A DNA stretch of 63,293 nt from a virus, in UHGV virus genome UHGV-0247968; one strand, written 5' to 3'. Numbering within the stretch: the stretch's first letter is position 1; the number at the start of each line of letters is the position of its first letter. A program made the translations under genes and the position numbers. The notes under the pieces are model-generated. The model was not told where the DNA came from. It was given only the letters and a program-made list of their open reading frames with translations, and did not search any database. Positions 51,307 to 57,587 of this stretch are shown in pieces.

Positions 51307-51675
51307 TTACGCTCGCTTGTCCTTGTACCCAAGCAAAGTATCGAGCGACTCATGTACCACGATACCGTAGCCACGCAGCAAGTCCCGCATCGGAGGCCAC
51401 CAAACAGGCGTTGCGTCCGTATCAGACCGATGTATGAGAAAGACCTCATCGGCATCCGTTATACGGTTGAGCATGTCGGCCAGAAGCTCCAACTGCTTTT
51501 TGCGATTCTCGGTGCAAAGTTTTGTCGTATCTGCATTGATGAACAGTCTGTCCACCTTATGCCCGAGACTACCAAGAATAGTGGACAACAGACCGACCTT
51601 CTTTTCAAACTGCTGCCCGACAGTAGACAGCGTATAAAATTTGAAATCAAGCGGGACGATGATGAAGATTCTCAT
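51307..51675 (-). CDS. Rossmann-like protein resembling nucleoside 2-deoxyribosyltransferase / DUF4406 (paralog of 52309..52659)
   Basis: MRIFIIVPLD... LGHKV ... DADEVFLI ... YGIVVHE has the same topology as the 52309 gene product. Confidence 0.35.
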   Translation of the reverse strand: MRIFIIVPLDFKFYTLSTVGQQFEKKVGLLSTILGSLGHKVDRLFINADTTKLCTENRKKQLELLADMLNRITDADEVFLIHRSDTDATPVWWPPMRDLLRGYGIVVHESLDTLLGYKDKRA

Positions 51676-53086: not shown

Positions 53087-53725
53087 TTAACTCTTCCCGG
53101 AAAGTGTTTCATCAGAAGAGGATTCCACCGTAGTGTCGACCCTGTTGAAAGGATACCGCCAGGGCAGCAGTTCGGGGTGGCCCAGAGCAGGGAAAATGGC
53201 GTCAAGGAAAAATTTCCACTCAGGGAGCTTGTGGTTATCGCGCTGCAAGATGATGTTCTTCAGGACAGCATAGTTCCCCGTCCAGATGCGACGCTGCAAC
53301 CAGCTCTGCGGGAGACAGGCGTTGAGCCTGCTGAAATCCCCGTCCTGCCGCAAATCTTCCAGAAAGTTGACATAGTAATCAGGAACATGCCTGGATTCGA
53401 AGCAATACTTCGTAACAGGCTTCTTCATCAGCGTGTGCATCGTGGACTCGGACTGGGCCACGGTGGACACCTTGTAGGTGTCCATCTGCTTCCACCAGTA
53501 CAGCGGCGCCGTGATGTCGAGGATGACACCAATCTGCCGCAGAAACTTGTCGTGTCCACCGGCGCCGTACAGCGCGAGCTGCGGCGCCAGTTCGCACAGC
53601 CTGGCCCATTCATCGTGCTGCTTGGCCTCTTCGGGCGTCGCATACCCGGACACCTTCCCATACGACAACCCGATACCGAACAGGGCCTCTTCGTACCCAA
53701 ACTCTTTCATCAGCCGAACACGCAT
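53087..53725 (-). CDS. ThyX-family (flavin-dependent thymidylate synthase-like) protein with non-canonical active-site motif
   Basis: GHDKFLRQIGVILDITAPLYWWKQM aligns with the ThyX [25 protein letters not shown] region. RIWTGNYAVLKNIILQRDNHKLPEW aligns with the ThyX C-terminal ...TGNYR.W..FI..R...HA..EI motif. Canonical RHR(x7)S is replaced by TYK(x7)E. Confidence 0.45.
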   Translation of the reverse strand: MRVRLMKEFGYEEALFGIGLSYGKVSGYATPEEAKQHDEWARLCELAPQLALYGAGGHDKFLRQIGVILDITAPLYWWKQMDTYKVSTVAQSESTMHTLMKKPVTKYCFESRHVPDYYVNFLEDLRQDGDFSRLNACLPQSWLQRRIWTGNYAVLKNIILQRDNHKLPEWKFFLDAIFPALGHPELLPWRYPFNRVDTTVESSSDETLSGKS

Positions 53726-53726
53726 A

Positions 53727-54023
53727 TCACATATCCTTCTTGAGCCACGCCGCCAGCGCAGCTTCTCCATCTGGTGTCAAAAGATAATATCCCCGCACAT
53801 TGCCGCGATGCCTCGGCAGCCCGATACGCATGAGGAACCCCTTGCCGCACAGCTTGTTGGCTATCCCGCAGGCACGCATGGCAATACCCTGACGATACCG
53901 CGCGGAAGGTTTCCTGGGCGGTAACGACGCGAATGCCCTGAGACCAAGCACATAGCCGAACGCATGACCCCTCGGCAGGTCGGCCACCGCCTTCAGGATG
54001 CGGTATTCCGCAAGTGTCAGCAT
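53727..54023 (-). CDS. winged-helix DNA-binding protein (MarR/PadR-like)
   Basis: YRILKAV...GYVLGL...RGYYLLTPDGEAAL. GGGAGG RBS. 1-nt TGATG coupling with the dUTPase gene. Confidence 0.45.
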   Translation of the reverse strand: MLTLAEYRILKAVADLPRGHAFGYVLGLRAFASLPPRKPSARYRQGIAMRACGIANKLCGKGFLMRIGLPRHRGNVRGYYLLTPDGEAALAAWLKKDM

Positions 54024-54538
54024 CAGTCACCTCCCGTGGACCCGAAGCCCTTCGTTTCCCTGTAGGTGTGCGACAATTCCTCGACCACGGCGAACTCGAC
54101 GTCGATGCTGAGACCCTTGTTGATGTCCGCGACCACGAGCGCCGGGGCCATGATGGTCGGCACGATGATGAGCTGCGCCACCCTCTGGCCCTCATAGTAG
54201 GCCACAGTGGGCTTGCGCAGGAGCGACGCGGCGCCTCTGGCCTGCACACTGTCCGCTTTGCGGAACAGCACCTTCACCGTGCCCCGGTAGTCAGGGTCGA
54301 TGACCTGGACACCGCTGCCCATCATCTCCAGACCTGAACACACGACAGAGCTGCGGGCCACGAGCAGACCGGCGAACCCTGCGGGCAACTCCATCTCCAC
54401 ACCGGTGTCGAAACAATAAACCCCGTTCCGCCGCGTGAGCTTCGCCCCCCAAAGGTCGAACCCCACGGCACCGCCGCTCATGCGACACGGCACCTTCGCC
54501 CCGGCGAGCGTGAGCTTACACGGGATGATGACAGCCAT
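54023..54538 (-). CDS. dut: dUTP diphosphatase (dUTPase)
   Basis: Motifs GAVGFDL, RSS, GVQVIDPDYRG and RGxxGFGSTG. ATG at 54538 after AAGGAGG. Confidence 0.85.
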   Translation of the reverse strand: MAVIIPCKLTLAGAKVPCRMSGGAVGFDLWGAKLTRRNGVYCFDTGVEMELPAGFAGLLVARSSVVCSGLEMMGSGVQVIDPDYRGTVKVLFRKADSVQARGAASLLRKPTVAYYEGQRVAQLIIVPTIMAPALVVADINKGLSIDVEFAVVEELSHTYRETKGFGSTGGD

Positions 54539-54590
54539 ATCTTCCTCCTTGTTATGATGTATAGTAAAGCATAGTAAGTCGCAAAGGTCA

Positions 54591-54626
54591 ATAAAAAACC
54601 CTCCCGCGTGTCGGAGAACGGGAGGG
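54591..54626 (-). terminator. intrinsic terminator on the - strand (ccctcccg-ttctccgacac-gcgggaggg + TTTTTTATT), at or near the IS right end
   Basis: Read directly. Separates the TnpB region from the dut promoter-like sequence TTGACC-17-TTTACT. Confidence 0.6.
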
Positions 54627-54639
54627 TTCTGAGAGGTGT

Positions 54640-54830
54640 GGCTCACCAGGAACGCATGACTGATGCTCCACAGGAATGTATCCGGTCCCTGCAACACCCC
54701 GGGCGTATCACCCTAGTTTCACCCGGGACATCGTTCAGGCAGTTTTGGTTGTACCCCAGGAGCGCGCCATAGTCAACATTGACATCCTCCCCCGCCTAAA
54801 GTCGGGGGATTCCTATCGGTAGCGGCTCTA
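54640..54830 (-). ncRNA. putative TnpB-associated omegaRNA / right-end RNA
   Basis: By analogy with IS605-family elements the guide RNA overlaps the tnpB 3' end and extends to the right end. Strong secondary structure is visible (ggaggatgtc..., cccgggtgaaactagggtga...). Not verified. Confidence 0.3.
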
Positions 54831-56030
54831 ACGAGCCGCGCCACAGGCGGGTTCCTGCTTCGACGCGGGCGCTTGAGCCCTTCCCGCTCCACAGGCTGTC
54901 ACGGCCTGCCCGGCCGCCAGAATGTTCAACGCCGCATTATGGTCAGCGTTGCATTCAAATCCGCAGGCCGTACAGCTGAATTTCGCCTGCGTTGGTCTGT
55001 TTGCCCTGTCTACGCATCCGCAATGGCTGCATGTCTGACTGGTATACTGCGGTGGAATGACAATCAGCACACCTCCCAGCCATTTCAACTTGTACTCAAG
55101 CTGTCTGCGGAACTCATACCAGCCCTGATCCAGTATGGACTTGTTTAATCCTGCCTTTGCCCGCACATTTTTCCCCGGTGCTTCAAGCGTACCGGAAGCC
55201 GAACGCGACATATTCCGCACTTTCAAATCTTCAATCACGACAAGAGCGTGGTTTTTGCTGATTATCGTGGTTGTCTTGTGCAGAAAATCGTTGCGTACAT
55301 TGGCTATTGTACGGTGCAGGCGCTGGATTTTGGCTTTGAGCTTCTGCCAGTTGGCGGAAAACTTCACTCGTTTTGCCAACTTCCGCTGCAGCTTTGCCAG
55401 CTTCTTTTCATGCTTGCGGAAACTGTGCAGTGGTCTGATAGAAGAGCCATCGGAAAACGTCGCAAAACGGGCAATGCCCATATCTATGCCGACGACACTT
55501 TGCGAAGGATGCACAGGTTCTGGAACTTCCCGTTCCGTCTGAATGGAGACGTACCACTTTCCAGCGGAAAGAGAGACTGTCACCTGTTTCGGCGTTCCCT
55601 CTATTTTGCGGCTGTTGCGGTAGCGTATCCACCCGATTTTGGGAAGGAATATGCGGTCGTTCCTCTCGTCCAGCTTGAAACCCTGCGGATAGCGGAAGGC
55701 GTCATGAACCCCCTTTCTCTTGAAACGCGGGAAATTCGCACGCTTCGCAAAAAAGTTTTTGTAGGCCCTATCGAGATCTTTCAACGCTTGTTGCAGAATT
55801 TGAGAATGGGCTTCAGCAAGAAAAGATGTGTCGTTTTCCTTCTTCCAGTCCCGAAGGGCTTCGCAGAGCAAGGAAAACCCCAGACGCTTCCCTTCCTTTT
55901 CATAGGTCTCTTTTTCCAATGCAAGCGCCTTGTTCCAAAGGAAACGACAACAGCCGGCAAAGCGCCGCATGAGGCTTTCCTGCCCGGTTTTGGGGCGGAG
56001 CTGAAACTTATAGGCTTGCAATCTTTCCAT
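54828..56030 (-). CDS. tnpB: TnpB (IS605 OrfB-type RNA-guided nuclease)
   Basis: MERLQAYKFQLRPK start. RuvC-like motifs GIDMG, VVIEDLK, NADHNAALNI. Zinc finger CSHCGC...CTACGFEC. Confidence 0.85.
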   Translation of the reverse strand: MERLQAYKFQLRPKTGQESLMRRFAGCCRFLWNKALALEKETYEKEGKRLGFSLLCEALRDWKKENDTSFLAEAHSQILQQALKDLDRAYKNFFAKRANFPRFKRKGVHDAFRYPQGFKLDERNDRIFLPKIGWIRYRNSRKIEGTPKQVTVSLSAGKWYVSIQTEREVPEPVHPSQSVVGIDMGIARFATFSDGSSIRPLHSFRKHEKKLAKLQRKLAKRVKFSANWQKLKAKIQRLHRTIANVRNDFLHKTTTIISKNHALVVIEDLKVRNMSRSASGTLEAPGKNVRAKAGLNKSILDQGWYEFRRQLEYKLKWLGGVLIVIPPQYTSQTCSHCGCVDRANRPTQAKFSCTACGFECNADHNAALNILAAGQAVTACGAGRAQAPASKQEPACGAAR

Positions 56031-56303
56031 AGGTTCCAGTCTATCGCAGCACAAACGAAAAGGCAAAAATTCCAGTTAAGGTGCGCCTTATATCCCCGCC
56101 CTGAAGGGCGAGGCTTTACGGCGCGCTGGGTAAAATCTGGTGCCCCGCCCCATCAGCTCAACCGCAGGCGGTATGGGGCGGGGACTTTCAAGTTTGGCGT
56201 TCCAGGGTTGGCGTCCGGTCGCGTACCCCAGAAACACATCGGGTGTGCAGTCACCCGACAGCAAACTGTACAAAACGTCACGTCGTCTTGCTGTTGGCTG
56301 AAC

Positions 56304-56975
56304 CTACTTGGAAGACGCTCCGGTGTCAAGAGCTTTCGGGGCCAGGGCCAAAATCTTGTGCATGGCCTGCCGCAAATACTCAGCTTCCCACTCAGCATCG
56401 TGCAGGGCGTGGTGCGCGACACCGGTATCGGGGACCTCGACGGTGATACCGAGGGACTTCGCCATGAGCTCCACGGTTCTGAGCGACTGGTTGTTCCGGT
56501 AGGTCCACACCTTCGACAAGAAATCGGAATCATCATAGCACGCAATCGCGTCACGCCAGATGACATTATCGAACTCCGGTCCCTTCCCCCAGAACTGCAC
56601 ATCGGTACCGGACCGAACAGCAGAGTACGACATGACCCAGCGCACAAAATGCCGCGCGGCAAAATACAGGGAGACGGCATCGTTGTCGTCGAACACGGCT
56701 TCCCGTGCAGCAGGACTGGTCTTCATGGCCCACCACCGCACCGTATCATAATCCATGATACGGCCCGGCTGGTTGTCACCACGAACAGTACAATAGAACC
56801 TGCCGATGACTTCATAGTGTTCGTCGAGGGCCACGGCACCGATGGCTACGATGACAGGTCTGAGACCAAGCCCGAGCGTTTCGAGGTCGATGACCACATG
56901 CAACAGGGTGCGGTCCCGCCCCTGGATGTTTTCCTGCACACGATACATTTCGGTGCCACATTCTTCTTTATCCAT
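56304..56975 (-). CDS. DEDDh-family 3'-5' exonuclease (DnaQ-like)
   Basis: Exo I VIDLETLGL; Exo III HHALHDAEWEAEYL. ATG at 56975 after GGGAGG. The table ORF extends upstream without an RBS. Confidence 0.75.
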   Translation of the reverse strand: MDKEECGTEMYRVQENIQGRDRTLLHVVIDLETLGLGLRPVIVAIGAVALDEHYEVIGRFYCTVRGDNQPGRIMDYDTVRWWAMKTSPAAREAVFDDNDAVSLYFAARHFVRWVMSYSAVRSGTDVQFWGKGPEFDNVIWRDAIACYDDSDFLSKVWTYRNNQSLRTVELMAKSLGITVEVPDTGVAHHALHDAEWEAEYLRQAMHKILALAPKALDTGASSK

Positions 56976-57002
56976 ATATACCTCCCGTATGTATAGAGCT
57001 GT

Positions 57003-57031
57003 GTATAACAACACGCACAGAAAATAGCAAC
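57003..57031 (-). promoter_or_regulatory. possible promoter for the - strand operon (TTGCTA-17-TATACA on the - strand) in an AT-rich stretch
   Basis: Divergent intergenic region 56976-57587. Confidence 0.3.
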
Positions 57032-57302
57032 ACGAAAAGTAAAATACAAAATTTTTCAGGTAAGTGAAAAGATATTCGAGTGTGGGGCCTGTCCAGATGG
57101 GGTGGGGTAGTGATGCATAGTGGGAGAATTTCGAAGGTGGAGAAGGTTGTGAGCGCAGCACAGAATGTACGTTTTCTCTACGGGTCGACGGAACCGCCGT
57201 CCAAACCCACCTGGCCCTCGCCGAACGCGCTGCCGCCCTCGCGCCCAGGTCCCCGCCTAAGTATCTGAAATCATTGAACTTTTCGATATACAAAATACGT
57301 TA

Positions 57303-57361
57303 TTGACAGCCCCCCTTACATGTGACACTATTACCTTAACAGGTTGAGATAATACCTTAAC
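57303..57361 (+). promoter_or_regulatory. TTGACA-17-CACTAT promoter-like element followed by two direct TACCTTAAC repeats spaced 21 bp apart (operator-like)
   Basis: TTGACA at 57303-57308. Repeats at 57332-57340 and 57353-57361. Upstream of the + strand 57588 gene. Confidence 0.35.
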
Positions 57362-57587
57362 GGTATTGCTTCCCCTGCCTGCTCTTTGACAATGCGGACA
57401 GCCCGCCCATCCGCTCGCGCCTCATGGCGCACAAGCGCCATCCCCGCCCCTCGCGTCTGCCATCGTGCCACGTTGAGACGGCGCGGCGCATGCCATGAGA
57501 CAACGCGAGGGACACGGATGCACCGGCACAGTGCTGGCCTGATATAGAGACATCACACGGATGGGGGAGACGGAAAGGGGATGCACC

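Follow-up and report, generated by a model that had tools for sequence, protein, structure and literature searches.

The 63,293-nucleotide virus genome UHGV-0247968 (hereafter the window, meaning this whole stretch of DNA) carries a tnpB gene amid genes of phage nucleotide metabolism, which raises the question of how this gene came to stand there, where the mobile unit that brought it begins and ends, and what it might do during infection. Comparison with sister phages, related transposons and known RNA-guided nucleases makes it highly probable that the unit is a non-autonomous insertion sequence of the IS200/IS605 family, with IS608-type ends and an origin in Desulfovibrionaceae, which lost its transposase gene tnpA and was inserted in a gap between two phage genes. 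An initial annotation, made from the sequence alone, had recognized, in a row of phage nucleotide-metabolism genes, a TnpB-only IS200/IS605 element whose nuclease is intact and is accompanied by a guide RNA, and this description holds. The position of tnpB between an exonuclease and a dUTPase gene is likewise borne out by Pfam: an Rv2179c-like 3'-5' exonuclease gene (56304-56939) lies upstream on the same strand and the dUTPase gene (54023-54538) lies downstream, and tnpB has the orientation of the neighboring phage genes. That the window is the genome of a phage, one from the human gut, follows from its relatives, which are IMG/VR viral contigs of 38-64 kb, and from its other products, among them an internal virion protein and a head-tail adaptor as well as a DNA polymerase and a primase/helicase. 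The sequence is 100% identical to ENA ERZ28656890 scaffold_711 (63,762 bp).

Ends of the Element and Its Unoccupied Sites

The limits of the element (Table 1) were set against unoccupied loci, namely 8 IMG/VR sister phages found via the exonuclease and nine human-gut contigs with an identical dUTPase. Homology to the sister phages ends at 56130 and picks up again at 54778. Comparison with related phages, proposed in the initial annotation, thus yielded both the empty site and the exact ends, which replace the limits 54590-56300 given there. Between the exonuclease and dUTPase genes, tnpB is found in 0/16 sister loci; therefore, the insertion is recent and tnpB is not an old domesticated gene at this site. 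The same count disposes of a state that the initial annotation had named as telling against its reading, i.e., relatives with tnpB at the same position and degraded ends. L339, the closest sibling, shares 97-99.6% identity with the window on either flank but has no element at this site, and therefore again points to a recent event. A suggestion that the element marks a mosaic boundary, the exonuclease side seeming more diverged, was rejected, as L337 and L339 show close similarity to the window at either side. The insertion is intergenic. Since the element entered a gap flanked by hairpin and terminator structures of the phage, no gene was broken, in agreement with the earlier statement that no open reading frame (ORF) had been disrupted.

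On the minus strand, the left phage flank ends in CAGATTTTAC, the element starts with CCAGCGCGCCGTAAAG followed by the left-end hairpin, and the right flank starts with the segment TGTTGACTATGGCGCG. At the left end, 16 nt separate the cleavage point from the hairpin foot. Among the 17 family copies with a recognizable left end, a TTAC flank goes with an AAAG left end in 4 and a TTAT flank with AAAA in 13, with no exception. The right-end motif GGAGGATGTCAA is nearly invariant in 65 copies from bacterial genomes, from Desulfovibrio to Burkholderia and Enterobacteria; in all of these, TCAA stands 10 nt 3' of the right hairpin foot, and the flanks diverge directly after it. The window holds a single copy of the element and one occurrence of the right-end motif. 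The flanking TTAC and TGTT are not duplicated, and terminal inverted repeats are absent. The element thus has the features by which IS200/IS605 members are recognized, with subterminal hairpins at both ends, a specific target tetranucleotide matched by a guide tetranucleotide, and a fixed right-end cut. A search of viral_contigs with the 15-nt right-end motif found a TnpB homolog at 24 of 80 loci among the matches listed; the remainder are probably chance, and one match, L163, carries the same element.

These ends closely resemble those of IS608 from Helicobacter pylori, in which TTAC pairs with the left-end AAAG and TCAA lies 10 nt beyond the right hairpin (PMC3201880). As in IS608, insertion is 3' of TTAC, the right end is a TCAA 10 nt beyond the hairpin foot, AAAG and GAAT stand 5' of the left-end and right-end hairpins, respectively, and subterminal hairpins occur without terminal inverted repeats or target duplication. 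Conversely, tnpA and tnpB of IS608 run in the same direction, whereas tnpA is divergent in the full-length form of the window element and has been lost from the window copy; furthermore, many members of the window family use TTAT/AAAA in place of TTAC/AAAG.

Table 1. Features of the insertion sequence and its immediate flanks in the window.
Feature	Position	Strand	Basis
Whole insertion sequence, tnpA-deleted, IS200/IS605 family (1351 bp)	54779..56129	minus	Homology breaks in sister phages and collinear copies
Flanking TTAC, left cleavage/target tetranucleotide and predicted TAM (target-adjacent motif); phage DNA outside the element	56130..56133	minus	Left-end flank comparison
Left-end module: AAAG (56114-56117) and subterminal hairpin CCTCGCCC-TTCA-GGGCGGGG (56094-56113)	56094..56117	minus	Sequence; conserved in 17 copies
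tnpA remnant: last 32 codons (131-162), with stop from the flanking TTA	56041..56133	plus	tblastn with L001 TnpA
tnpB coding sequence, 400 aa and stop	54828..56030	minus	Pfam, NCBIfam, alignment to ISDra2 TnpB
omegaRNA scaffold, minimum extent supported by covariation	54779..54916	minus	RNAalifold on 53 family copies
Right-end module: GAAT (54809-54812), hairpin CCCCCGAC-TTT-AGGCGGGGG (54789-54808), linker AGGATG, TCAA (54779-54782)	54779..54812	minus	Family conservation
Predicted guide segment TGTTGACTATGGCGCG (maybe to 54759), phage DNA 3' of the right end	54763..54778	minus	TnpB/omegaRNA layout

Loss of tnpA and Origin of the Element

The absence of tnpA stated in the initial annotation is correct, apart from a short remnant. 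A tblastn search with the TnpA of L001 (NF033573, IS200/IS605 transposase) matched the window only at 56041-56130 and found no tnpA elsewhere in it. In the full-length copies L001, L002 and L004-L007, nt 1-71 and 98-1351 of the window copy align on either side of a segment of ~430 bp, which codes for a divergent IS200/IS605 Y1 transposase (NF033573); tnpA is present, whole or in part, at 64 of 80 genomic loci. The Y1 HUH TnpA typical of IS200/IS605 is thus missing from the window copy, which does not set it apart from the family, as the accepted members include tnpB-only subgroups. With tnpA cut to 32 codons, the window copy is therefore non-autonomous. In full-length copies, the tnpA stop codon TAA is the complement of the flanking target TTA(C/T) (window 56131-56133, plus strand; L001:2492-2494), and the transposase frame is therefore closed only by the insertion site.

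Full-length, tnpA-bearing copies occur in gut Desulfovibrio and Mailhella. Among 185,579 species genomes, the nearest TnpB proteins are likewise from gut Desulfovibrio (92, 88, 88 and 86%) and Mailhella (84%). The deletion junction, in which GCCTTT is joined to TCGTTTGTGCTGCGATAGA, recurs at four other places: L003 (a Desulfovibrio metagenome-assembled genome), L008, L163 and L347-L354. The same 1351-bp element is collinear in L347-L352 (95% identity), in L163 (90.6%), a different, temperate-looking viral contig, and in L003 (86.7%). In numerous human-gut samples (L347-L354; ENA, Logan contigs), the element lies at a fixed site between TTAT and GCAATACTCC, beside a ParA-like gene; one such contig is 166 kb long, and the protein of this copy has been deposited as DAU80916.1, "endonuclease [Caudoviricetes sp.]". 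Because the junction is common to these loci, the 1351-bp form predates its entry into the window phage. An internal deletion of tnpA in a Desulfovibrionaceae element left it with the left end, tnpB, the omegaRNA and the right end. Such a form would depend on TnpA supplied in trans, which, coming from a full-length copy in the infected cell, probably pasted the single-stranded element 3' of TTAC.

Two further observations concern other derivatives. The 90% cluster to which the window TnpB belongs also has truncated members of 222 aa, each present on 25-26 contigs (up to 44.6 kb), which suggests a recurrent truncated copy in another mobile element. In addition, sister phages hold remnants of the same element that consist of the right end only, at a second site (L084:10431-10544, L081:10248-10326 and L344:4996-5072). 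The remnants end exactly at TCAA; that in L084 is 100% identical over 114 bp, and the others span 79 and 77 bp. Their site is homologous to the window gap between 51601 and 49715, where they cut the homolog of the window ORF 51307-51675 (minus strand) after ~25 codons and replace ~1.9 kb of the window; the content of this slot differs between siblings.

TnpB, the omegaRNA and Predicted Targets

The protein has the Pfam domains HTH_OrfB_IS605, OrfB_IS605 and Cas12f1-like_TNB and matches the NCBIfam model guided_TnpB (NF040570) at 2.4e-115 and 385.9 bits (cut-off 100). It aligns over its full length to the TnpB of ISDra2 (8bf8/8exa; E 4e-54), with D183, E267 and D363 at ISDra2 positions D191, E278 and D361 and with C334, C337, C353 and C356 at C331, C334, C351 and C354. 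The split RuvC triad (D-E-D) and the zinc finger of an OMEGA nuclease are therefore intact. The gene is complete, as had been annotated, with a length of 400 rather than 401 aa. Against its relatives (with L003 left out), tnpB has a ratio of nonsynonymous to synonymous substitution (dN/dS) of 0.10-0.16. Its dS is 0.39-1.04 in codons 1-340 vs. 0.10-0.48 in codons 341-400, a drop over the last 60 codons that coincides with the overlap of tnpB and the omegaRNA. As judged by these sequence measures, tnpB and the omegaRNA are intact and under purifying selection, which acted mostly in host copies; the protein would presumably be able to cleave DNA during infection.

The scaffold of the omegaRNA shares the last 29 codons of tnpB and extends to the right-end boundary, an arrangement of conserved structured RNA expected of OMEGA systems. 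For the last 230 nt of 53 family copies, RNAalifold gave a consensus fold with compensatory changes in 20 of 33 pairs. For a named structure of 29 pairs, the paired fraction of cells is 94.5%, vs. 43-48% when the partners are slid by 1-3 columns; both sides vary in 21 of the 29 pairs, covariation scores 0.447 vs. ~0.1, and none of 500 shuffles reaches any of these measures. The window copy preserves every helix. Since TnpA binds the terminal one as a DNA hairpin, only the upstream helices (1, 2 and 5) speak specifically for an RNA. Expression and processing of the omegaRNA are predicted, and transcripts should be sought over the 3' end of tnpB, not downstream of it.

The covariance search against Rfam that had been proposed (53500-57500, E <= 1) returned two sub-threshold matches. 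HgcC (RF00062) matched 54766-54889 with E 0.12 and 20.4 bits (gathering 50), and sot0042 (RF02656) matched the left end and phage flank with 21.8 bits (gathering 88). Both are archaeal RNAs at the 3' ends of IS1341-type tnpB genes, and HgcC shares a right-end-like tetraloop motif with the sotRNAs found there (PMC4615843). Over the 3' end of tnpB and the right-end hairpin, HgcC thus occupies the position of those RNAs, but its match is weak and its score, like that of sot0042, far below gathering. The sot0042 match was rejected as an RNA, being driven by a GC hairpin that resembles the right-end hairpin.

ISDra2 of Deinococcus radiodurans (8bf8, 8exa, 8h1j) offers the closest comparison for the nuclease. 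Domain order, the D-E-D residues and CxxC...CxxC are common to both, as are a structured RNA over the 3' end of tnpB that goes no further than the right-end boundary and, in the full-length form, a divergent tnpA. The two differ in their TAM, which is TTGAT for ISDra2 and predicted to be TTAC/TTAT here, and RNA-guided cleavage by the window protein is likewise a prediction.

By analogy with such systems, in which the flank 3' of the right end serves as guide, the guide TGTTGACUAUGGCGCG would have been copied from the adjacent phage DNA. In the window, the guide segment TGTTGACTATGGCGCG occurs once and is preceded by TCAA, not TTAC; because TCAA takes the place of the TAM, the occupied locus would be self-protected. 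The proposed search for a TAM-adjacent target was productive: TTAC stands directly 5' of the guide sequence in 10 of 16 sister loci, three of which match at 16/16 positions and seven at 15/16, with the one mismatch TAM-distal, at position 15 or 16. In L339, TTAC is followed by 17 matching bases. The other 6 of 16 siblings have TTGC, TTCC or TCAC in this place and include L084 (16/16 match) and L337 (20/20 match). Unoccupied relatives thus carry the predicted recognition site, as is expected for homing, and alleles predicted to be cleavable circulate in the same habitat. A second TTAC, 103-498 bp upstream of the targeted site, is invariant in 15/15 siblings, and the targeted site varies in 6/16. 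This TAM variation fits escape from cutting, as a lead only, since the lineages are non-independent and the region is ~10% diverged. A 15-nt target pattern searched in metagenome_contigs gave chance matches in 120 of the 120 listed, none with phage context.

If active, TnpB with its omegaRNA would cut any copy of the phage locus in which TTAC stands beside TGTTGACUAUGGCGCG. The predicted cut sites include both the joint left by excision and the unoccupied allele of co-infecting sister phages, and repair from an occupied genome would restore the element or spread it.

Competing Explanations and Known Systems

Several points weigh against a simple insertion followed by homing. Above all, every sibling has 76-498 bp between two TTAC-type sites that are missing in the window, where the element links the upstream TTAC straight to the downstream right flank; the insertion is therefore not a clean one. 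The missing segment begins upstream where ATTTTAC is followed by GGCTTGACAC and ends downstream where ACGGCTTAC is followed by TGTTGAC, and in some siblings it holds an extra ORF of 145-254 aa. Given this loss, the present guide may differ from the one with which the element arrived. The predicted TAM is read from the flanks of left ends, and that the phage hosts are gut Desulfovibrionaceae is likely from the transposon relatives, the sole ground for this assignment. No Rfam family reached its gathering score. Moreover, the element occupies the window site in one phage genome only (two contigs), with no sign of spread in the population.

Three routes to the missing segment may be proposed. A deletion at TTAC microhomology could have occurred in an ancestor, followed by insertion; the element could have inserted at the upstream TTAC, followed by an adjacent deletion made by TnpA, in which joining of the cut right end to the next TTAC on the same strand would be normal integration chemistry; or recombination could have taken place between differently occupied genomes. 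An element at the upstream TTAC with an intact right flank would give the junction GGATGTCAAGGCTTGACAC, and one at the downstream TTAC with an intact left flank would give GGCTTACCCAGCGCGCC. Excision would leave TTTTAC joined to TGTTGAC and a circle in which TCAA meets CCAGCGCG. The junction pattern GGGGGAGGATGTCAAKGYTKRMYAYGG, allowing either right flank, had 0 matches in metagenome_contigs and viral_contigs, and no intermediate state was seen there. The exonuclease-dUTPase gap is a variable slot (L338-L345, L083), with 103-131 bp in some siblings and ~500 bp in others, where it holds an ORF of 145-149 aa (254 aa in L343); every variant begins directly after the upstream TTAC. At L085:7570-7600, the equivalent of window 56130, TTTTAC runs into CCAGCGC, identical to the opening 7 nt of the element's left end, and the next 29 nt present in other siblings are missing, which may be the footprint of an earlier imprecise loss of an element at the upstream site.

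Two alternatives concern the object itself. The anatomy of the initial annotation, with an element at 54590-56300, CCCCGCCC hairpins (56143-56183) as its ends and an omegaRNA at 54640-54830 running to a terminator, is scarcely credible. The hairpin and the terminator-like stem do exist, but both features, like everything outside 54779-56129, are present in element-free phages, and family conservation and covariation stop at the TCAA (54779). The supposed subterminal hairpin (ccccgccccat/atggggcgggg) is phage DNA kept with the flanks in element-free relatives, and the true hairpins lie within the element (Table 1). The structured region on the 3' side (54594-54762, minus strand), considered as the omegaRNA, was rejected in the same way as phage intergenic hairpins that element-free siblings retain. 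A scan does find a terminator-like site (54598-54619) where an intrinsic terminator had been described, although sites of this type are no more numerous than expected from shuffling. The promoter-like sequence for the dUTPase gene was not recovered, as a consensus scan found no sigma-70-like promoter in 54400-56400; the sequence meant lies ~190 nt beyond the true end, not just past it. It is also very improbable that a host transposon was wrongly joined into the phage contig during metagenome assembly. Host genomes do contain the element in repeated copies (with 57 member sequences in its protein cluster and 1894 in the nearest neighboring cluster), and the locus is short of the segment that siblings retain. 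Against this stand junctions exactly at the cleavage sites, 3' of TTAC and of TCAA, with collinear phage DNA on both sides, an identical TnpB protein on a second contig in a similar place, and the remnants of the same element in sister phages.

For an insertion sequence of this kind, the remaining alternatives concern what it does. It could be an inert passenger, intact yet without a part in infection (unexpressed, or too slow for a lytic cycle) and later lost, which is possible and would not be surprising, if on the unlikely side. The right-end remnants of 77-114 bp in L084, L081 and L344 would then show its usual fate; the element is found on only two contigs and sits between terminator-like structures, with no promoter recognizable by the scan. 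A coding sequence without defects and with low dN/dS points the other way, though selection was mostly in host copies, as do the intact RNA helices and the co-orientation of tnpB with the phage genes, which makes read-through transcription plausible. Less easily defended, and quite unlikely, is a weapon or domesticated nuclease that the phage keeps in order to destroy host DNA or rival sister phages. In its favor, 10/16 siblings have an unoccupied allele matched by the guide, and the targeted TAM is polymorphic while the other TTAC is invariant, but this polymorphism comes from non-independent lineages in a region that is ~10% divergent. Furthermore, the element is not fixed, its closest siblings being without it, both ends are fully transposon-like and common to host copies, and the guide shows no sign of reprogramming or multiplication. 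The marks of a domesticated TnpB are thus lacking, with the gene absent from 16/16 sister loci and both the ends and the catalytic triad intact.

The most far-reaching reading is that, when Desulfovibrionaceae phages co-infect, the insertion sequence functions in RNA-guided homing or marker exclusion, with its omegaRNA guide aimed at the unoccupied exonuclease-dUTPase junction of sister phages. Taken jointly with three further proposals, this is rather unlikely: that the TTAC-bounded loss is an adjacent deletion made by the transposase, whereby the guide was re-aimed at a second TTAC; that the TAM polymorphism is escape from cutting; and that the right-end remnants at a variable module boundary reflect elements shaping phage mosaicism.

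As an object, a tnpB-only IS200/IS605 derivative in a phage is ordinary and of a kind already known. The initial annotation had called such elements uncommon in phage genomes, which is true only in relative terms: 338 of 50,697 GenBank phage records hold a TnpB homolog (E <= 1e-20), including P1-like Escherichia/Salmonella, Ralstonia, Mycobacterium, Staphylococcus, Helicobacter and Campylobacter phages. The TnpB-only IS200/IS605 elements ISCaje1-3 were described in the Campylobacter phages CP220/CPt10 in 2010 (PMC2853527). Recently, cyanophage A-1(L) was reported to carry a tnpB that is identical to host copies and induced in infection (bioRxiv 10.64898/2026.02.14.705889). Like the window element, these are host-related tnpB-only transposons whose distribution within a phage group is patchy, with close relatives of the carriers lacking them. 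The window case differs in its host group (Desulfovibrionaceae) and phage type, and in that exact ends, a predicted TAM and guide, an omegaRNA and unoccupied sister alleles have been defined.

A functional parallel is offered by the free-standing homing endonucleases of T-even phages, in which a nuclease gene also lies between conserved phage genes and the predicted target is the allele without the gene. Protection of the own allele is common to these enzymes, to non-restorative transposon homing and to the window element; unlike in the T-even enzymes, recognition here would be by an RNA guide and a TAM, not by protein. TnpB-driven homing has been described into unoccupied plasmid copies, and into co-infecting phages only in theory (2026 review, PMC13565253). 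With its ends, predicted TAM, guide and RNA scaffold defined, the window locus therefore provides a natural test case for TnpB homing between co-infecting phages. Siblings that are 97-99.6% identical on both flanks offer unoccupied alleles, some with the TAM and a perfect target and others with TAM variants, and these natural variants allow a test of protection from cutting. Since the guide matches the unoccupied site in most sister phages, gene-drive-like spread is directly testable.

Some minor observations concern the surrounding DNA. A megablast search of the locus against GenBank phages returned nothing useful, with a single 239-bp fragment. An antisense ORF of 582 aa (window 55248-56996, plus strand) faces tnpB, the left end and the exonuclease gene; L001 and L163 have similar antisense ORFs across from tnpB, of 337 and 327 aa, respectively. 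The cyanophage preprint claims a translated "TnpB_rev"; the 582-aa frame may be a chance product of GC-rich DNA. The block at 54594-54778, which is 76-99% identical in relatives without the element, contains a terminator-like stem (54598-54635) followed by a T-run and a -35-like TTGACT at 54776-54771. Its portion 54594-54762 had no Rfam match at E <= 1, and RNAalifold folded 54594-54750 into long hairpins with only 2 covarying pairs, the sequences being too alike for covariation. The block may be a phage small RNA or leader. Its upstream partner, an inverted GTACCCCAGGGGC with a TTGACA-like box, was lost from the window with the 76-498 bp, and part of the block is duplicated in L083 and L085.

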